Source of the DNA: a virus
Taxonomy: Duplodnaviria > Caudoviricetes
IMG/VR virus record: IMGVR_UViG_3300024272_002379
Strand: one strand, 5' to 3'
DNA length: 64,000 nucleotides
The number at the start of each line of letters is the position of its first letter. The stretch's first letter is position 1. The notes beneath the pieces are model-generated. The model searched no databases. It was not told where the DNA came from and was given only the letters and a program-made list of their open reading frames with translations. Positions 1,560 to 47,969 of the stretch are shown here, piece by piece. Both the position numbers and the translations under genes were made by a program.

Positions 1560-1634
1560 CGGAATGTAGTTCAGCTTGGCTAGAACGCTTGTTTTGGGAA
1601 CAAGAGGTCGCAGGTTCGAATCCTGTCATTCCGA
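1560..1634 (+). tRNA. tRNA-Pro(TGG)
   Basis: cloverleaf; CTTGT-TTTGGGA-ACAAG. Confidence 0.95.
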
Positions 1635-1843
1635 CTAAGACTTTTTGTTACCTCTAAGGCATTCTCTTATACGGGTTCCGTATGGGGGATATAAGGAGCG
1701 AGGCGAACCTGAATCTTCCAGTCTCTAAAGAAGAATGAAGTGGCGTTTATGGTTATTATTTCCTTTGTACGACAACAAAGAAATTTAATTCTTTTTCATT
1801 TTTTGGTGTTCCTTTAGGAATAAAGCTGTCTAACGACAGCTAA

Positions 1844-1923
<80 letters not shown>

Positions 1924-2010
1924 TTTTCAAAACGCCATAGTTTTGGAAAACCTCGTTTGTGTAAAAAATCATCGAACCTGGCAGTGTATAGGTTAACTGC
2001 CACCCCACAT

Positions 2011-2083
2011 GCCCCAATTGCACAGTTGGTAGTGCGACTGATTTGTAATCAGTAGGTCGGCGGTTCGAGTCCGTCTTGGGGCT
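2011..2083 (+). tRNA. tRNA-Thr(TGT)
   Basis: ACTGA-TTTGTAA-TCAGT. Confidence 0.95.
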
Positions 2084-2520
2084 TTGTTACATAAGCATTT
2101 ATGCCCTAAGTAGCAGATAGACATAAATGTGTAACAAAACGATGGTCTGCTATAATCGGTAAAGTTGTTCTATCCTGTATAGAGGTTATTGGGTCCGATT
2201 CAGGTAAAACTAACGAAACAGGACGATTTATTGGCGTACTTTAGTGAAAGCAGAGTCGAGTAACTAAAGAGAAAATCAATACCCAGTTCATCATTCTTTC
2301 TGGGTTACGTGAGACGTTAGTATGGTCTCGCCGTAAAGATTAAGCTGTGATATAGTATCAAAGCTATATTGCGGAATCAGGTAGGATATTTATATCAGAC
2401 CTAACGTATACATAAGTTAAAACGAAGGTAATCCAACAGTGAACCGCAGTACAGAAGGTGGGCCTAGTGTTTGTAATACAAAGTTAGACCGTGCGGGGCT
2501 AATGCATGTTTCTTATGATA
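2084..2520 (+). ncRNA. large structured RNA between tRNAs (possibly ROOL-like)
   Basis: ORF-free, many hairpins (TTGTTACA/TGTAACAA, ACCCAG/CTGGGT, GAGAC/GTCTC), tRNA-island context; family not verified. Confidence 0.45.
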
Positions 2521-2528
2521 CGGTATAT

Positions 2529-2611
2529 GCAGCGTTGTGATAATGGTAGTCGGGCGGTCTTGAAAACCGTTGTGTCGAAAGGCATTGGGAGTTCAAGTCT
2601 CTCACGCTGCG
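2529..2611 (+). tRNA. tRNA-Ser(TGA)
   Basis: GCGGT-CTTGAAA-ACCGT, long variable arm. Confidence 0.93.
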
Positions 2612-2750
2612 TTTGGCTAAGCATAGGTAGCCGTACCCAGATGACGAAACGACAGTCGTCATATAACAAGCCTATTGCAGTTTATCATGTACTAAACATG
2701 AAGGCTCTTCTGTTTTAGATGCCAGTCTGTGCAGGAGGGCCGAAGTCTCT

Positions 2751-2839
2751 GGAGTGTTACTCAAGTTGGTGAAGAGGGAACCCTGCTAAGGTTCTAGCGT
2801 CCATTATGGGCGGCGAAGGTTCGAGTCCTTCACACTCCG
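2751..2839 (+). tRNA. tRNA-Ser(GCT)
   Basis: GAACC-CTGCTAA-GGTTC, long variable arm. Confidence 0.93.
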
Positions 2840-3105
2840 TTAAGGCTGAAGTGCAATGCTAAATTTTTATGTAATAGCACGCCCGTAAAAGACGTTGAGG
2901 TTGAGGACAATGAGTATGGAAGTGGCCTTTCGAGGCCTAACACGAAAGTTTGACAATAAGTACCGAATGCATAAGATTGACCCATCTAAATGCTACGTCA
3001 GTGGGAGGAACTTATGTAAATACGTTGATACTACGAAGAAGTATCTGCTTGGAAAACGAATAGGTCATTCCCGTTTCTAGCATTTCTGTACGAAAACAGA
3101 ATTAA

Positions 3106-3199
3106 CGGAAGGTAGCCTAGTGGCTAGGCTTGTTGCGAAAAAACGGGTGAAAGCAACTGGAAACGCCGTTTGACGTGAGTTCGAATCTCACTCTTCCGT
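3106..3199 (+). ncRNA. tRNA-like RNA with pseudoknot replacing the anticodon arm
   Basis: acceptor CGGAAGG/TCTTCCG, D-arm, T-arm GTGAG-TTCGAAT-CTCAC; GTTGC/GCAAC crossing AAACGG/CCGTTT. Confidence 0.65.
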
Positions 3200-3379
3200 C
3201 TATATCATCAATATCAACTTACAACAGCCATGGTAATGTTGTGAGAGCGTCATAGGAAGACGTTCTTCCTACTTCAAAGAGACTGGAGTATGCAACAATA
3301 GCTGATGAGGCTCATGACCCCATAAATTGCAGGATAAATAAACAGCGTCTGCTGAAAGATGACAAAGATGATATTATTT

Positions 3380-3453
3380 GGACCATTAGCTCAGTTGGTC
3401 AGAGCGGTCGGCTCATAACCGATTGGTCCTTGGTTCGAGTCCAAGATGGTCCA
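3380..3453 (+). tRNA. tRNA-CAT, probably Ile2 (lysidine type)
   Basis: GTCGG-CTCATAA-CCGAT; GGACC acceptor like Firmicute tRNA-Ile2. Confidence 0.88.
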
Positions 3454-3503
3454 CTAAGAACTCAATACGCCTCTTAACAATGCGGACCACGTTGAGTCAA
3501 AAA

Positions 3504-3628
3504 CCTGGGGGAGCTGTGGCAAGCAGCCATCTGATAAATGGTGAGTTAAAATATGAAGATACTTTATATCGGCATATTACTATGGTGAAAACCCATTCAT
3601 TAACTAGGTTCGATTCCTGGCTCCAGGA
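3504..3628 (+). tRNA. atypical tRNA-Ile(GAT) with ~61-nt variable-region insertion
   Basis: acceptor CCTGGGG/CTCCAGG, anticodon arm GCCAT-CTGATAA-ATGGT, T-arm CTAGG-TTCGATT-CCTGG. Confidence 0.6.
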
Positions 3629-3783
3629 CTATAATGCCTAACGGCATTAATATGGAATAGAAACCCCAATCAATTCCGTGTCAAACGAATTTCAAGACTA
3701 CCAGGGGGAACCTAACAAGGCTGTTATTTGTGCTGCTTGTGGCGTTAGGCTGGTAGAAGTAACCTACCCCAATTACAATTAAA

Positions 3784-4488
3784 TATTGTGCTTTAAAATG
3801 CACACATATATCCTGGTGAAGATTGTTTAATCAACATGCCAGGGCATATCTACAGTAAGTATGAAATAATATTCGTTACAGGCTTAGCCAGTATGTTTAT
3901 TATGTAATACTGAGACGTATGAGAACATGGGATACTTTGTTCGGTAGTGCGTTTAACGGATATAAATCAAGTCCTAAGGACGTGGTGAAGTTCTGTTATG
4001 AAGAAGGGAACCCTTCAAACGATTGATATGGCGTAACTTATACATAACGATTAGTGTGACATGCTTTTGGTGAACAGAATAGACGCTCTCTGTGAGAGAA
4101 TAACCCTGGGAACTGGATGAGCTGGTAACTCATTACAGATGGCAGGGAATTACCAAACAAGTTCATTCGCTGTGATACCGAGACAACTCGGAGTATAACG
4201 AAAGCATAAGTCGCAAGTAGCCTAAGGCGATAAAAGAGAATATAACAGTGATAAGATGAATGAATGTATCATCAAAACATATTCTGAACGATTCGGGTGA
4301 AAGCTGGAGGTGCCAATCCTTCATGGGTTTTAGACTGATAAAAGGCTGTTAACCTTTATCAGTTGGGGCAAGAAGTATGGAAGTCATGAGCCATGCTCAG
4401 ACTTGTCTCCCCATTCGCATAATAAATCACAATGTATATTTTATAAGATGAATAAAAGTCTATATGGTGTGTGTTTTAAAGCACAATA
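3784..4488 (+). ncRNA. GOLLD-like giant structured RNA
   Basis: 22-bp terminal helix 3784-3805/4467-4488 (2 G.U), ~705 nt, no ORF, in phage tRNA cluster; 3' half resembles GOLLD as I recall it. Confidence 0.7.
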
Positions 4489-4507
4489 CTAACAGCAACG
4501 GAAACTA

Positions 4508-4536
4508 TTGACATTCCATTGCTGTTTTTGTATAAT
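4508..4536 (+). promoter_or_regulatory. sigma-A promoter
   Basis: TTGACA-17-TATAAT, 12 nt before tRNA-Tyr. Confidence 0.85.
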
Positions 4537-4548
4537 TACAATCAATTC

Positions 4549-4632
4549 GGGTAGGTAGACCGTAGTTGGTAGCGGGCCAGACTGTAAATCTGGTGCCTTC
4601 GGGCTCCGTTAGTTCGATTCTGACCCTGCCCA
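4549..4632 (+). tRNA. tRNA-Tyr(GTA)
   Basis: CCAGA-CTGTAAA-TCTGG. Confidence 0.93.
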
Positions 4633-4819
4633 TTTACATCAAGGACGGTTGGTGACAATTTATTTGTCAAAGGGATAAGGGCAATACATGTTACCGCTTA
4701 TCGTGTAGATGTGTAGTGCAAAGTGTATTGGTGTGAGATTGTTTCCATATTAGAGAAACAGCCAATCTTAAATGTGAAATATCTAATTAGAGAAGGATAA
4801 AGTAACAGCTTTGTATTAT

Positions 4820-4891
4820 AGAATATTAGCTTTAACGGCAAAAGCACACGGCTGATAACCGTGGTCAGCGGTTCGACTCCGCTATATTCTG
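4820..4891 (+). tRNA. tRNA-Ile(GAT)
   Basis: CACGG-CTGATAA-CCGTG; AU-rich acceptor AGAATAT/ATATTCT. Confidence 0.85.
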
Positions 4892-5112
4892 TTCTTTGTG
4901 AGTGTGACTACTTACAATGACCTAAAACGGCTCGTAAACTTGTAGAAAGGGCAGGCCGACGGGTAAGAGTGCCGCAAGTACCAAATAACCCTGAGGGTAA
5001 AACTGGGTTCGCCTCTTTTTGAGCACGGGATGCAGAAAAGAATAGACATCTCTCAAAGTTTAGGTAAATAAACAGCTTAGGTTGGTAACCTCTTAGTCAG
5101 AAATAACCATAT

Positions 5113-5185
5113 TGGGTATTAGCTCAGTCGGCAGAGCACATGGCTGTTAACCATGGTGTCGTAGGTTCGAGCCCTACATACCCAG
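5113..5185 (+). tRNA. tRNA-Asn(GTT)
   Basis: CATGG-CTGTTAA-CCATG. Confidence 0.95.
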
Positions 5186-5487
5186 TTTAAATCAAACTGA
5201 AACGAGTCAGGCCCAATCGCTCGATTAAGTATGTGAGGAAAGTGAGGTTGGTTGCCAGCTTACTCAAGACTTCGTGTGCTTGAGGACAGCCCATTTATGG
5301 GTCCCCACTGGTTGTAAAATGTCTTCGCATTTAAAGTGGTGTTGTAAAATACATTCCGCTTAATCTTTAGTTTGGTTTTATTTGGAGAGACATGTTGTAG
5401 CGGTTTCTACGTATGTACAAAGGCTCTGGACAAGTCTTATTTTTTGAAACAGCAAGCGTGCGATTATCAGGTTAGTCTCTCCAGTAT

Positions 5488-5561
5488 AGCGGGGTAGAGC
5501 AGTCAGGCAGCTCGCAAGGCTCATAACCTTGAGGTCATAGGTTCAAATCCTATCCCCGCCA
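5488..5561 (+). tRNA. tRNA-Met(CAT), initiator-like
   Basis: 1:72 A/C mismatch, GCGGGG acceptor, CAAGG-CTCATAA-CCTTG. Confidence 0.88.
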
Positions 5562-5636
5562 CTCATGAAAACAAGTGATTGTTTTCTGATATCAGGCATT
5601 TATCGGGTTCGAATAGATGTAGGTATTGTTTTTAAT

Positions 5637-12110: not shown

Positions 12111-12533
12111 TTGATAAAGAAAACTCAACCATATGAAAAGTTAGTGGATTATGTAAAGGACAATCCACAAAAAGGATTAACCATTCCACATACAGAAATT
12201 GAAACAATTATCGGAATTCCTTACAAAAGTAGCAGATACTCATATCATGTTACTAAGGCAAACGATAAATTAACACAGGTTTCATTAAGACTGGAACCAA
12301 TTAACGGATTTGGTTACCGTATCATTCAGGATAATCAGTATGTTGACAGTATGCGTAAATCGTACAATATGGCAGTTAGAAACATTCAAAAAGCAAAATT
12401 CATTGCTGACAATACTGATGTTACAACTTTAAATGTTGGCGAACATATGGAATGGCATACTGTATCGCTAAAGATTAAGAACGCTCAAAGTGCATTAGAT
12501 GCGATTTTACCAAAACCAACAAATATCCCATAG
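12111..12533 (+). CDS. putative winged-helix protein, companion of RAMP gene
   Basis: helix-turn-helix then LEPINGFGYRI wing; TTG start with GGAGG. Confidence 0.6.
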   Translation: MIKKTQPYEKLVDYVKDNPQKGLTIPHTEIETIIGIPYKSSRYSYHVTKANDKLTQVSLRLEPINGFGYRIIQDNQYVDSMRKSYNMAVRNIQKAKFIADNTDVTTLNVGEHMEWHTVSLKIKNAQSALDAILPKPTNIP

Positions 12534-13015: not shown

Positions 13016-13516
13016 ATGGCAATAGTAGGAGAATGGATACCACAGTCTGGCTACAAAGGTAAAGCAGATGCAAACAAAGTAGCTTACGAAATTGAAACCA
13101 TTGGAATCAGTAACACTACGGATGAGTTTAATACTCAGGAAATGGTAGATTATGCTCGTAATAATCCAGGGTCAGAATTACATAAGTTATTTGAATGGAA
13201 CGATAGCGTTGCTGCTGAAGCATATCGAAATCAGCAAGCACGAGATATTTTACGTTTCTTAAAAATTACTGTTGTTGATGATACGACTCAGACTAAAAAT
13301 CCTACATTAGTTAGGTATTTTGTTAGTACTGGTAATCATGATGGTATGTATAAGAAAACAGAACCTATATTCCAGAATGCTTCAGAAGCAGATAGGGTAT
13401 TAGAAAATATGAGAAGAGACGCTGAAAACTTTATTAATAGATACAAAGCATATCTCAGTCTCAATCCAAATTTATCTAACGCTATTACAGCTTTACAGGC
13501 AGTTGTTAATCCTTAA
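13016..13516 (+). CDS. conserved phage protein adjacent to RAMP gene
   Basis: VDYAR..SELHKLFEWNDSVAAEAYRNQQAR motif; RBS at 13016. Confidence 0.7.
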   Translation: MAIVGEWIPQSGYKGKADANKVAYEIETIGISNTTDEFNTQEMVDYARNNPGSELHKLFEWNDSVAAEAYRNQQARDILRFLKITVVDDTTQTKNPTLVRYFVSTGNHDGMYKKTEPIFQNASEADRVLENMRRDAENFINRYKAYLSLNPNLSNAITALQAVVNP

Positions 13517-13523
13517 GTTTTAT

Positions 13524-14238
13524 ACCTTGCTGTATATATATTGGCTTTAATTGGTCAATGAAAATACAACAAATTAGGACAAACCAATCCAGCAGAGAAC
13601 ATTATCAGCATACTACAGGACATAAGCAGGATAGGACATCACAAACGGCTCGTTAGAGCCTTTATATATACAGCAAGGTTGTTGTATAAAGCTCATTATA
13701 GGACAGAATAGCTCATAGCAGATGATATCATTAAAATACATAATAACACAAAGTCTTTTATAATCTCTTATATGTATATCGACTTTAAATGCTTAGAGTC
13801 AATATACATGTAAGAGAGGACAGGACAACTCAGTGCATTTCTACCACAACAAATGACAATGTATAACAAAGCAGAGGGGCGATTTTCGCCCCATTTTTAT
13901 GAATACATATATTGGCTTTAATGGTCAATAGAACAATACAGTGCAGAGCAGTATATAATAGCTCAGTTAAGAATACCATAGCATAACACAAATGGCTCTT
14001 AGAGCCTTTATATGTGTTCATAAATAGATATATTGACTTTAGCAGTCAATAAGCTCAAAAGACCGTAGAACAGGACAGCTCATTACAAAGTAGTTCAGGT
14101 TAAAACAAGCGAAAACAAAGGCTCGTTAGAGTCAATGTATGTGTTTATGAAACACAAAAGCACAAAGACAGCATAATACATGTCAGTGCAACATAGGATA
14201 TTACAAATCATTACAAAATCCTATTGAAAATCAATAGG
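13524..14238 (+). repeat. array of six 5-nt-periodic (NYA-NN)n tracts in repeated hairpin scaffolds; putative guide-RNA array
   Basis: invariant A every 5 nt over 80 units; repeated scaffold arms ATATYGRCTTTA...TTAGAGYC inside long inverted repeats. Confidence 0.9.
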
Positions 14239-14256
14239 TAGAAAGCGAGACGCATT

Positions 14257-14913
14257 ATGGCAGCTAAAGTTACAGAAGAAGTAAAAGAGATTCAGAACAA
14301 AATTAATTTCGCTACAGCAACAATTACAATTGTTGGCGATAGTGACCTTATTCTTAACAAAATGAGAGATAGCACTACTCAGGAACTTGCAGATAAACAG
14401 GAAGGTAAAGTACAGGGTACAAAGAAACCTGTAAACATGTACGAGCATCTTGTTGGTTCCATTCATTGGCTCAAGGGAGAAGAAACAGACTATACAGAAG
14501 AAGGCTGGTTGAATGCATTAAAGAATAATGTTCCAGGTTATCCATCTTCAGGTATGAAGAAAGCATTATGTGATGCTGTTGTTCGTGTATTAGGCGAAAC
14601 ATATAGCACAAAGTTCAATGCTAACGTACAGATTCTTAATAGCTTCTTACCAATCGAATTTGGTTCAAGTGCTTATGATAAATCATTATTTAGCCCTCAG
14701 AAGGGTAGTCCAGTTCTTTGTTACAGAAATGTATTCAGAGATTGGAAAACAACATTTACAATTAAATATATTCCAGACAATTATTCATTAGACCGTATCA
14801 TCGAAGTTATTAACTGTGCAGGTTTTGCATGTGGTATCGGTAGCCACAGACCATCAAGTAAAGGTGGCTCCAACGGTATGTTCCACGTAGAATCCGTTAT
14901 GGAAGTAGTTTAA
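14257..14913 (+). CDS. stand-alone Cas7/RAMP-like RNA-binding protein
   Basis: beta1 ITIVGDSDLILN, PSSGMKKAL, YRNVFRDW, C-terminal Gly loop AGFACGIGSHRPSSKGGSNGMF. Confidence 0.8.
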   Translation: MAAKVTEEVKEIQNKINFATATITIVGDSDLILNKMRDSTTQELADKQEGKVQGTKKPVNMYEHLVGSIHWLKGEETDYTEEGWLNALKNNVPGYPSSGMKKALCDAVVRVLGETYSTKFNANVQILNSFLPIEFGSSAYDKSLFSPQKGSPVLCYRNVFRDWKTTFTIKYIPDNYSLDRIIEVINCAGFACGIGSHRPSSKGGSNGMFHVESVMEVV

Positions 14914-14921
14914 GTACATAT

Positions 14922-15650
14922 GGGAAGGAAAACCCTATAATAAACCGCTAAGATGAAGGCAGACCAAGGCTGTTGCAGGACCTGAAAAGGCGTTCGCACT
15001 TAGATGTAATAAAAGCGAAGATTAGGAGACTCATATGCAAAACCCTGACATATGACATGGAGAAATACCGTTGAATGCAACCAGGTAGTTAAGATTTTAT
15101 ACCGACAGAAACGACCGTTACTGCGTAGCTCAAAGTCGGAAGTTTACTTAATTGAAATAAAAAACAAATAGAGAGCAAAGGTAACAGCTAAGATATTACG
15201 ACCTCATGGGTGCCAACCACGCACACGAATCCGTATTAAATCTGACGTAGAGGCAAGTTCACTTAGATGCAATCAAGAACTTTAGCGTGGGTGCTTCACA
15301 ACTGCATAAATATTTTGAGAAGGAAAACTCGCTATCAAACCGCTAGGTTATGGGTCCCTTACCATGTTTAAAGACCTTGAACTCCTAGAGCGTAAGCATT
15401 TGTAACAAAAGTTTTAAAATTGAATAGTGGCTTTAGTGGTTTGATGGAAACCATCTCCCAGGAGGGGACTGGTGCGAATGAACCCAGGAGACAGGACTAA
15501 CTCCTTACACCAGCGAGTCTTGAATTAGACCGCTCGGAGAAACGATGCCCAGCTAAGTTTTCAGAGGGATAAGGTATGCTTTGCAGGAAACCCTCGGTGC
15601 TGTTTGCCTATTTCTCCTACCAGGCTTCTTAGATGCAATAAAAAGACCGA
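14922..15650 (+). ncRNA. array of five related pseudoknot-like RNA units
   Basis: repeated GCTAAG...CTTAGATGYAAT with variable 36-70 nt inserts. Confidence 0.65.
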
Positions 15651-15871
15651 TAAAACAAAATAGGATATAGTTGGTAATATACGTAGTTTCGGGTTCGAGG
15701 AACCATTTTCTGTACCATCCACAGGAATAAACGAAGAGGAATTACAAGTACATTGGCGACAAGGTGTGCGAACAAAGACGACCATTACAGTCATTCATGG
15801 TTAATCGTGTACAAAATGTATGAGAGTATCATATGCACTGCTCTCATACTACTTGTCGAACGAAATAAGTA

Positions 15872-15899
15872 TTGAAATATTTTTCAAATCTGTTACAAT
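15872..15899 (+). promoter_or_regulatory. sigma-A promoter (extended -10)
   Basis: TTGAAA-16-TACAAT with TG; precedes tRNA-Gln. Confidence 0.6.
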
Positions 15900-15912
15900 A
15901 TATAACACATAT

Positions 15913-15984
15913 AGGGCTATCGCCAAGCGGTAAGGCACAGGATTTTGATTCCTGCATCCGTTGGTTCGAATCCAACTAGCCCTG
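15913..15984 (+). tRNA. tRNA-Gln(TTG)
   Basis: CAGGA-TTTTGAT-TCCTG. Confidence 0.93.
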
Positions 15985-16069
15985 TTCATAGTGGTCAGTG
16001 TTAATGCACACTGTAAATAAAGTAGCCTCTCGATTGGCTTTCAATGGTCAGCTTTAACCACTATAACAT

Positions 16070-16244
16070 ACACGGGTTGTCTGAGCTGGTGAGAGATGAT
16101 ATCTTATCAATAGGCCAGTGAACTAGGTGCCAACCACTCTGATTAGAGTAGGGACATGTGAAAGTTATAAGGGAAGGAACGCTGATACGTAGCATTGTTT
16201 TGGTAACTTGATGAGTAGTAGAGGTTCGATTCCTTGCCCGTGTG
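16070..16244 (+). ncRNA. tRNA-like RNA with ~100-nt insert in place of anticodon arm
   Basis: ACACGGGT/GCCCGTGT acceptor, GAGG-TTCGATT-CCTT T-arm, CTTATCAA/TTGATGAG helix. Confidence 0.55.
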
Positions 16245-16259
16245 TTAAAGACCAAGCAA

Positions 16260-16332
16260 AGGTAAGTAGCTCAGTTGGGAGAGCACCCTGCATTGAGCGG
16301 GGTCGTCGCAGGTTCGAGTCCTGCCTTGTCTT
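16260..16332 (+). tRNA. atypical tRNA (loop CATTGAG, nominal TTG; identity uncertain)
   Basis: canonical D/T arms, A at position 33, two G.U in acceptor. Confidence 0.6.
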
Positions 16333-16494
16333 GATATAAGCTGAAGTCTTGAAGCCAAGTATAGTCATGCGGTGGGTGGATATTTACATTAGGTCCAATG
16401 AGATTAGACTTTAGTATCTATCAAATAGAACTGTTGACTAAAAATAATGCCCAGCAAAAACCATATGCTGGGCTATTTTATTGGAGGAAATTAT

Positions 16495-47086: not shown

Positions 47087-47437
47087 ATGGAAGGTAGTAA
47101 GATTTCAGGTGCAAAACATGGTGTTCAAACCATGTTGTATTACTACCTTTCTTCTCTTATTGGTACAACGCCAGACCCTAAGCAAGTCATTGCTACAGAG
47201 TTAGGAGCTATGATAGATTTGTCAGAAGAGCAAATTCAATATGTAAAAATGAGTATCGCTCATGATAATAAGATGCTTGAGAATCTGTCTTCCTGTGTTG
47301 CTTTATTAAGTAACATAGAGAAGACAGGTGAATTAGATTTACAATCCATTGGAATAGTAAGAAAAATTCTTGAAGTTATGCAATCTCAATGCAAAATTGC
47401 ATTAGATGAATATACCGATTTTACAGAGGAAGATTAA
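47087..47437 (+). CDS. hypothetical protein
   Basis: RBS. Confidence 0.65.
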   Translation: MEGSKISGAKHGVQTMLYYYLSSLIGTTPDPKQVIATELGAMIDLSEEQIQYVKMSIAHDNKMLENLSSCVALLSNIEKTGELDLQSIGIVRKILEVMQSQCKIALDEYTDFTEED

Positions 47438-47438
47438 A

Positions 47439-47969
47439 ATGGATAAAGCTTTGCAATGGTTAGTTCAAAGAGTTAATGAAGAAACTCAGAACTATACTAC
47501 TTTAACCAAAACAGATATTGGTGACATGGTAAATACAGTGTTTAACTTAGATGAAACTTTATACACTATAGTTAATGATGTAATGGGTAATTACACAATC
47601 AAAACAACGTATGATTATCAAAAATCAGAATTAACAGTTGCCAATATTTCTAAGACAAATCTAATATCAATATCAGAAGAAAGGCTAATCGAATATATAG
47701 AAATGAATTTCAGTAGAGAATATATTCGAGAATCTGGTTCATATATCTATCAAGTTATTCATGAAAAAGCGTATGAGCTTATTGTAAAAACATTGGATGA
47801 CCACAAAGATGATTATCTATATGAAGATACAGATGCTTTGGCAGAAGCAATATTTGAACAAATGGATTTTGAGTACGTATATGATATCATTGACAATATC
47901 CTAGAACAGCCAGTAACAATGGAAGAAAAACTGGCAGATATAGGTATGTCACAAAAAGACTTTTTATAA
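47439..47969 (+). CDS. hypothetical protein
   Basis: RBS at 47439. Confidence 0.65.
   Translation: MDKALQWLVQRVNEETQNYTTLTKTDIGDMVNTVFNLDETLYTIVNDVMGNYTIKTTYDYQKSELTVANISKTNLISISEERLIEYIEMNFSREYIRESGSYIYQVIHEKAYELIVKTLDDHKDDYLYEDTDALAEAIFEQMDFEYVYDIIDNILEQPVTMEEKLADIGMSQKDFL

Follow-up and report, generated by a model that had tools for sequence, protein, structure and literature searches.

Which gene is a phage addressing when an intergenic region of its genome carries run after run of five-nucleotide units, and the variable bases of one of these runs read like the codons of a bacterial restriction gene? This question is raised by a locus in a stretch of 64,000 nucleotides (nt) of DNA from a virus of the Caudoviricetes (IMG/VR record IMGVR_UViG_3300024272_002379). 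We will henceforth refer to the whole of this stretch as the window and count positions from its first letter. Within it, six A/C-rich pentamer tracts (A to F) lie among long conserved stems at 13517-14256 on the + strand, between a small candidate accessory gene and vipr, a gene for a lone RAMP (Cas7/Csm3-like) protein. We found that the variable bases of the second tract, tract B, match a conserved motif of hsdM, the methyltransferase gene of type I restriction-modification (R-M) systems. We consider it very likely that tract B is a guide specified for hsdM within a system of the VIPR (Viral Interference Programmable Repeat) class.

VIPR was introduced in bioRxiv preprints from 2026 (10.64898/2026.04.26.720920, 10.64898/2026.04.26.720927, 10.64898/2026.10.15.759431), with Escherichia phage SUSP1 and a Pseudomonas fulva prophage as examples of type II. 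Briefly, the lone phage RAMP protein Vipr polymerises on vrRNAs of 9-16 GGY/NN pentamers. Within each unit the fixed bases are sequestered and the two variable bases (NN) are exposed, and these pair with double-stranded DNA (dsDNA) while leaving out one target base, at the wobble position, between successive pairs; a gapped R-loop ‘triplex’ is formed in this way and represses transcription in both orientations. Natural targets in print are satellites, prophages, other VIPRs and viruses (10.64898/2026.04.26.720920, 10.64898/2026.04.26.720927), and satellite vrRNAs have been linked to decoy targeting of host repeats (10.64898/2026.10.15.759431). The initial annotation of our window, made by a model from the letters alone, implied that the system was an unknown one; on this point it was overtaken by the preprints, in which both the class and its code are described.

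Pentamer structure of tract B

Tract B (13688-13752, + strand) is made up of 13 consecutive perfect 5-nt units of the form n-Y-A-N-N, with A at unit position 3 in all 13. Its NN series (unit positions 4-5), namely GC TT GG GA GC TA GA TA TT AT TA AC AA, was found exactly as the initial annotation gives it, with the 13 units in register. Base identity within the tract was 0.43 at a lag of 5 nt and 0.56 at a lag of 10 nt, compared with about 0.25-0.27 in the neighbouring coding sequence. When tracts B, D, E and F were pooled, A occupied position 3 in 51/51 units, a pyrimidine was found at position 2 in 43 and a purine at position 4 in 39 of the 51, and there was no requirement for G. By chance, the whole window should hold about 0.1 runs in which A recurs at 5-nt spacing over at least 13 units; three are present within 430 nt. 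A run of this kind with 11 units was also seen at 47672-47722 within a coding region (open reading frame (ORF) 47406-47969), and it is probably due to chance given that about 0.8 such runs are expected in the window.

The guide proper appears to be shorter than the tract. Specifically, the NN of the first ten units (13688-13737, +) correspond to the first two codon positions of A-F-G-D-A-Y-E-Y-L-[M/I], a motif of HsdM, and the remainder (13738-13752, +) comprises unit 11 (ACATA, with NN = TA) and a constant 3' flank, ATAAC ACAAA, which also closes tract D. The NN of unit 11 does not continue the motif: in the matching genes described below, the codons that follow L-[M/I] misfit TA AC AA. Since unit 11 is off-motif and AC AA belongs to the constant flank, we take the guide proper to consist of ten units. 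The initial annotation had likewise remarked that the last three units did not obviously continue the motif. In the predicted RNA fold, tract B is mostly unpaired and lies between two strong stems.

Tract B matches hsdM genes of many species

We searched for the ten-unit series as the pattern GCN TTN GGN GAN GCN TAN GAN TAN TTN AT, which specifies 20 bases and leaves the third codon base free (NN targets were scanned with a 1-nt skip only). In a set holding one genome per prokaryote species (596 Gb), in which by arithmetic about one chance match is expected over both strands, at least 120 genome contigs were matched. All 120 matches listed read in frame as [D/E]-A-[F/L]-G-D-A-Y-E-Y-L-[M/I], then ..YASNAGKSGGEFFTP; the first ten units had thus been assigned correctly, and the segment that the initial annotation named as preceding this sequence in HsdM is the one found in the matches. 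Among the matches listed, the motif stands at median codon 180 of a gene with a median length of 523 codons. The same 120 matches contain 110 different wobble strings, meaning that a contiguous guide would match few of the sites, whereas the gapped series matches all of those listed.

The identity of the matched genes was supported by their domains and neighbours. Pfam analysis of four matched ORFs returned HsdM_N (PF12161) and N6_Mtase (PF02384), with E-values down to 1e-115. A Methylase_S gene lies downstream in three of these four, and an HsdR gene (HSDR_N, ResIII, EcoR124_C) was found downstream of hsdM in L045 and L156. The targeted hsdM is the first, promoter-proximal gene of hsdM-hsdS-hsdR operons.

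The initial annotation had pointed to genomes of Clostridia as the place to look for such sites. Among 251 genomes from the class of a Clostridia metagenome-assembled genome (MAG) of Hadza gut origin, 31 carry the site at no more than 2 mismatches, with 35 sites in total (9 exact) compared with 3 for a reversed-pattern control. One gut Clostridia MAG (G003, the genome of L093) has hsdM-type sites at both C1:201625-201653 and 221391-221419, one of them exact and one with 2 mismatches (V-L-G-D-A-Y-E-Y-L-I), suggesting that a single guide may reach paralogous R-M systems in one cell. As for targets within the phage itself, the tract series gave no period-3 matches above shuffled series within the window, and no site for tract B was found at up to 3 mismatches in two complete relatives of 208-210 kb.

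Conservation and retuning of the guide

To relate the match to the history of the array, we compared orthologous tracts between phage lineages. Orthologues of tract B were found at the same array position in L002, whose Vipr is about 89% identical, and in L017 (61-65% identical), and both retain GG GA GC TA GA TA, i.e., the GDAYEY core. Outside this core, unit 9 reads TT in the window, while L002 has GT and L017 has CT (encoding Leu, Val and Leu, respectively), and the first two units are GC TT here as opposed to GT AT in both relatives. The variant pattern of L002 and L017 matched at least 119 metagenome contigs, and all of the matches listed read V-[I/M]-G-D-A-Y-E-Y-L-I..FA.., which belongs to another HsdM subfamily. 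Related lineages thus appear to have retuned an orthologous guide to a different subfamily of the same protein. When the L002/L017 pattern was extended to 12 units so as to include GA AC, it had no matches in the metagenomes, indicating that GA AC is flank and not guide.

A similar substitution was seen in tract A, where TT is replaced by CT at a Leu codon in the L015 orthologue. Across five sets of orthologous tracts, the numbers of variable columns at unit positions 1 to 5 were 19, 14, 2, 6 and 6 of 39, respectively, and the difference in variability between positions 1-2 and positions 4-5 was significant (Fisher p = 3.5e-4). We regard this pattern, in which the non-pairing positions 1-2 drift and NN is held, as comparative evidence that the match to hsdM is maintained by selection.

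Vipr, its accessory gene and their relatives

The gene that follows the array (vipr; 14257-14913, +) encodes a protein of 218 aa that we assigned to the lone RAMP proteins by fold and homology. Its AlphaFold2 model (pLDDT 83.5) had Csm3/Cas7 chains as the best Foldseek hits (E = 3.7e-7, probability 1.0, TM-score about 0.5). We found 180 Vipr homologues in metagenomic phage contigs; the Pfam family RAMPs (PF03787) was detected in 13 of the 36 that were sampled, and the glycine-rich C-terminal loop is conserved. The link to VIPR at the sequence level was made through a protein of Pseudomonas phage LESphi2, P21_9, and not through SUSP1 Vipr. The two proteins share 25% identity over about 90% of their length (tblastn E = 3e-7, pairwise E = 1e-14), and the intergenic region upstream of P21_9 is full of canonical NNGGC pentamers. 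A putative accessory gene, followed by a gene-free array of pentamer tracts 450-750 nt long and then by a RAMP gene, is the common layout of every homologous locus compared, down to 42% protein identity. By describing the function as programmable, the initial annotation anticipated what was found, i.e., a RAMP protein next to pentamer guides in a class with published NN-only dsDNA pairing. The first readings of the RAMP gene with its array, of the wobble-skipping code and of tract A all agree with our tests.

The candidate vipr-accessory gene (vap; 13037-13516, +; 159 aa) lies directly 5' of the array, and each of the seven lineages compared has a homologue (142-173 aa, 27-74% identity) at this place. 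It has no Pfam or PADLOC family, and a fold search returned weak rows of winged-helix type only (E of 0.7 or above). The gene at 12111-12533 was also compared with the one that follows the Vipr homologue in LESphi2; the two have no similarity, and a correspondence between them was rejected.

A variant of VIPR with an A-based scaffold

The locus shares with VIPR its main components, namely a phage-borne RAMP protein that stands alone but for a small candidate accessory gene, and a long intergenic array of pentamers with three constrained and two variable bases per unit. It also shares the way in which targets are matched, in that NN correspond to protein-coding targets with a 1-nt skip on the wobble position, self-targets are absent and one tract (tract A) is aimed at other phages. 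By contrast, published VIPR units all contain G (GGY, i.e., YNNGG; NNNGG; YNNNG; NNNNG), and in the published structure the pocket for the third base (Y) excludes purines (10.64898/2026.04.26.720920, 10.64898/2026.04.26.720927). Here the fixed bases are n-Y-A (A-Y-A), which conforms to none of the published motifs and places an invariant purine, A, next to NN. A second non-G scaffold was found in the L026/L027 clade (positions 3552-4000 in each; Vipr about 42% identical), whose units read NN-A-Y-T with an invariant T. Other differences are that the guides lie within and between stems of 25-27 bp, where published ones are followed by a pseudoknot tail, and that one guide matches a host-type defence gene, hsdM. 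The main text of the VIPR preprints makes no mention of hsd, of a methyltransferase or of an anti-defence target, a statement that does not extend to their supplementary target tables. Judged by its sequence, the locus is a VIPR system, a variant and not a textbook member, whose scaffold is A-based and whose hsdM-directed guide has been kept across lineages.

If the repeat is recognised through A and not through G, the RAMP protein would be expected to have a base-recognition pocket of another kind. The glycine-rich loop of the Vipr encoded in the window (residues ~189-200) reads ..G-I-G-S-H-R-P.., and that of the LESphi2 protein, which is of GGY type, reads ..G-L-C-D-Y-R-P... In SUSP1 Vipr, G is recognised by D177, W178 and R179 (10.64898/2026.04.26.720920, 10.64898/2026.04.26.720927). 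The residues S-H-R and D-Y-R may correspond to these three positions and set the recognition of A and G, respectively.

We also compared the locus with the Cas7/Csm3 filaments of class 1 CRISPR-Cas systems. The two have in common the RAMP fold and its glycine-rich loop, and by the VIPR mechanism each guide segment would be covered by a single protomer, with bases flipped out periodically, as in class 1 filaments. Among CRISPR-Cas systems, the nuclease-free type IV and Tn7-associated type I are known to act by binding and not by cutting. They differ in that class 1 CRISPR-Cas has a period of 6 nt with 5 pairing bases, compared with 5 nt and 2 pairing bases here, and in that its spacers are acquired, whereas the guides here are inherited. 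No CRISPR-like direct repeats were found in 13400-14400 and no Cas families among the neighbouring genes. Given the NN decode and the RAMP fold, we dropped three other readings of the array, namely a CsrA sponge, TRAP-like ring binding and the template of a diversity-generating retroelement.

Architecture of the array and decoding of the other tracts

The 740 nt between the stop codon of the gene at 13037-13516 and the start codon of vipr contain no credible ORF. Between 13517 and 13900 the RNA is predicted to fold far more stably than its shuffles (z = -8.65). Searches with Rfam returned no family over 13517-14256 (sub-threshold noise only), blastn against 50,697 phage records gave no match, and a scan of IMG/VR with the conserved stem sequence found nothing beyond two known relatives. 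The tracts have 11-17 units each, and positions 4-5 vary between tracts.

Four long stems organise the array, all on the + strand. Stem I1 (13524-13679) has arms of 27 nt at 13524-13550 and 13653-13679 that are 89% complementary; it encloses tract A and contains, at 13647-13660, the short hairpin GGCTC-GTTA-GAGCC with a T-rich run after it. Hairpin I2 (13764-13817), with arms of 25 nt and a loop of 4 nt, lies just 3' of tract B, for which it may serve as a 3' handle, and looks like an ‘empty’ copy of the stem cassette. In L002 (2280-2400) this stem has a counterpart that holds a further pentamer tract, suggesting that cassettes are gained or lost between close relatives. Stems I3 (arms 13896-13921 and 13999-14024) and I4 (arms 14017-14041 and 14127-14151) together span 13896-14151 and enclose tracts D (13928-13992) and E (14050-14119), respectively. 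Tracts A and D, and apparently also tract E, are each followed by a small GGCTC-loop-GAGCC hairpin with a U-rich tail, and a hairpin resembling an intrinsic terminator (13876-13897, +) comes after tract C and closes the A-B-C segment.

Tract A (13559-13645, +) provides a second decode within the same array. Its NN spell Q-K-G-K-I-A-E-L-A-L-G-Y-G-G-S, and a 10-unit sub-pattern matched at least 115 viral contigs; all of the matches listed are in frame and read ..RQKGKIAELALGYGG[S/G].. in ORFs of about 600-700 aa. Based on this motif and on the polymerase-sized ORFs, tract A is probably aimed at a phage family-A (PolA-type) DNA polymerase. Its decode is, as far as sequence goes, an independent validation of the NN code.

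The remaining tracts were less informative. We found no target for tract C (13810-13875, +), which is conserved in relatives. The first ten units of tract D had one exact in-frame viral match, at L393 10649-10677 (IMG/VR contig 3300018495_003548), in an ORF that reads ..RRGDIVDVYAVDPTTD.. and includes GDIVDVYAVDP; a single match of this kind is too thin for naming a target. Tract E had no viral matches, nor any at up to 3 mismatches in five hsdM-bearing genomes. Tract F (14163-14217, +) has 11 units, overlaps a small hairpin ahead of the vipr ribosome-binding site and is near-identical in five related phages. A resemblance of tract F to HsdR, suggested in the initial annotation, was not borne out, with no viral matches and none in the same five genomes.

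The stretch 3' of vipr (14914-15912, about 1 kb) lacks both genes and tracts of 5-nt periodicity, and looks like a separate structured non-coding region. In SUSP1, unlike at this locus, some vrRNAs lie downstream of genes (10.64898/2026.04.26.720920, 10.64898/2026.04.26.720927).

The window as a whole is phage-like. It carries a transfer-messenger RNA at 311-688 (tag ANRPMLAAA), a ROOL RNA at 3788-4481 (231 bits), 13 tRNA genes at 1560-5562 and 15912-16333, and phage-type genes. Its phage relatives include complete IMG/VR genomes of 208-210 kb and come from human-gut metagenomes, Hadza samples among them. In a separate clade of phages of about 70 kb (L021, L022 and L024; genes at ~679-2971), the VIPR module adjoins a gene of the Tad4 family (PF25186; anti-Thoeris) and a gene for a 645-aa AAA_23/AAA_15 ATPase, in what looks like an anti-defence neighbourhood.

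A possible role in silencing host restriction

How could such a guide act? By analogy with published VIPR systems, a + strand transcript of the array would be processed into guides, and copies of Vipr would align along each guide with one protomer per 5-nt unit, each protomer sequestering n-Y-A and presenting the two variable bases. At the first two positions of each hsdM codon, the NN of tract B are the same as the coding strand. The filament would then pair with the template strand of hsdM, skipping every wobble base, and form a stable gapped R-loop that blocks RNA polymerase about 180 codons (~540 bp) into the gene. As the site lies in the promoter-proximal gene, such a roadblock could shut off the whole hsdM-S-R operon. 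Synthesis of new type I R-M enzyme in the infected cell would thereby cease, amounting to RNA-guided counter-defence. With wobble bases ignored, one guide would cover the hsdM of very many species and leave no escape by synonymous change. Targeting of mRNA was rejected as an alternative, given that NN are in the sense orientation and RNA from the + strand cannot pair with hsdM mRNA.

On balance, we favour this scenario, in which tract B is a VIPR guide for hsdM that silences the R-M operon of the host as counter-defence, as a probable one. Its parts differ in their footing. Filament formation, dsDNA binding and silencing would be carried over from the VIPR literature; that tract B is expressed and processed, that it acts on the host's own hsd operon and that the phage benefits are things we infer; and an anti-restriction function is plausible. 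The presumed goal of neutralising type I R-M in the infected cell is shared with Ocr of T7 and with ArdA. These are DNA-mimic proteins that block the existing type I enzyme at once, whereas RNA-guided repression of a gene would affect new synthesis only.

Several observations weigh against this scenario. Transcriptional silencing leaves in place the HsdMSR enzyme that was already made when phage DNA enters the cell, and loss of HsdM would leave the phage progeny unmethylated, so that the selective benefit is not obvious. A late shut-off could be of use where infection takes long, where the phage persists in a carrier state or where its DNA is protected on entry in another way, but this is speculation. 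Because the scaffold is A-Y-A instead of GGY, the mechanism is transferred here by homology and not by test. The context of tract B is also atypical for the array: it lies between two stems and not inside one, it lacks the GGCTC..GAGCC hairpin of tracts A and D, and it is followed by sequence unlike that after these two tracts and then by hairpin I2, which bears on whether it has a 3' handle. Finally, exact sites were found on 9 viral or proviral contigs among the 2.9 million of IMG/VR, making mobile R-M systems a possible target.

This last observation leads to a different view of the same VIPR guide, namely that it is naturally directed at type I R-M operons on competing mobile elements (prophages, islands, plasmids or other phages) and serves in warfare between elements. 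Published VIPR targets (satellites, prophages and other VIPRs) and the phage polymerase motif targeted by tract A fit such a role, as do the nine contigs themselves, among which a complete hsdM-S-R operon was verified on L156 and is indicated by ORF sizes on L158. Cellular sites are nonetheless common, with at least 120 contigs in the species set, and with 9 exact sites and 31/251 genomes at up to 2 mismatches in the Clostridia set. Nine viral contigs of 2.9 million are also few next to the at least 115 matched by the tract A pattern, and since many ‘viral’ contigs in IMG/VR are proviruses with host flanks, the nine may in fact be chromosomal. We consider warfare between elements rather unlikely as the main role of the guide, and its function would either way be the shut-off of R-M. 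We give still less weight to the idea that hsdM is bound for another purpose, e.g., to alter host methylation or the epigenetic state, to flag the chromosome to an accessory effector, or to soak up Vipr filament and so tune how much of it is free. It would make sense of a silencing that spares pre-made enzyme and deprives the progeny of protective methylation, it would give a place to the conserved candidate accessory gene, which has no recognised function, and vrRNA decoys on host repeats have been reported for satellites (10.64898/2026.10.15.759431). A decoy, however, would be expected at multicopy sites, and hsdM is present in one or two copies in a genome; the genes next to the locus showed no domain of a nuclease or other effector, and within the operon's first gene the site is the best-conserved stretch, as a silencing guide needs.

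One could also argue that the resemblance to hsdM arose by coincidence or is a relic, with tract B being a pentamer scaffold or a decayed guide that has no present target. The motif was, after all, first recognised after the fact, no targets were found for tracts C, E and F, and unit 11 is mismatched. Against this stand the agreement at 20/20 specified bases, the at least 120 matches where about one is expected, in frame in all cases listed, and the 35 sites compared with 3 for the reversed control. Furthermore, orthologous guides in two lineages keep the core while non-pairing positions drift, and tract A decodes just as cleanly. Taken together, these results bring the coincidental reading close to being refuted.

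Implications for VIPR and for gut phages

VIPR was described only in 2026, as a phage weapon against other mobile elements. If a VIPR guide silences host hsdM as proposed, the same machinery has been turned against the bacterial immune system, in a form of RNA-guided counter-defence that the text of the VIPR preprints does not describe. It would also show the payoff of the wobble-skipping code, as one guide matches 120 listed hsdM genes with 110 wobble strings. The A-Y-A repeat widens the rules for the scaffold, which matters both for finding VIPR systems (searches for YNNGG miss this family) and for engineering them. The wider proposition is that one inherited guide, reading codon positions 1-2 only, silences type I R-M across many hosts, that relatives retune this guide and that an A-based repeat is recognised; as a whole, we regard it as evenly poised between being right and being wrong. 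It predicts that a lineage of gut jumbo phages would be linked to the restriction barrier of Clostridia-type hosts.

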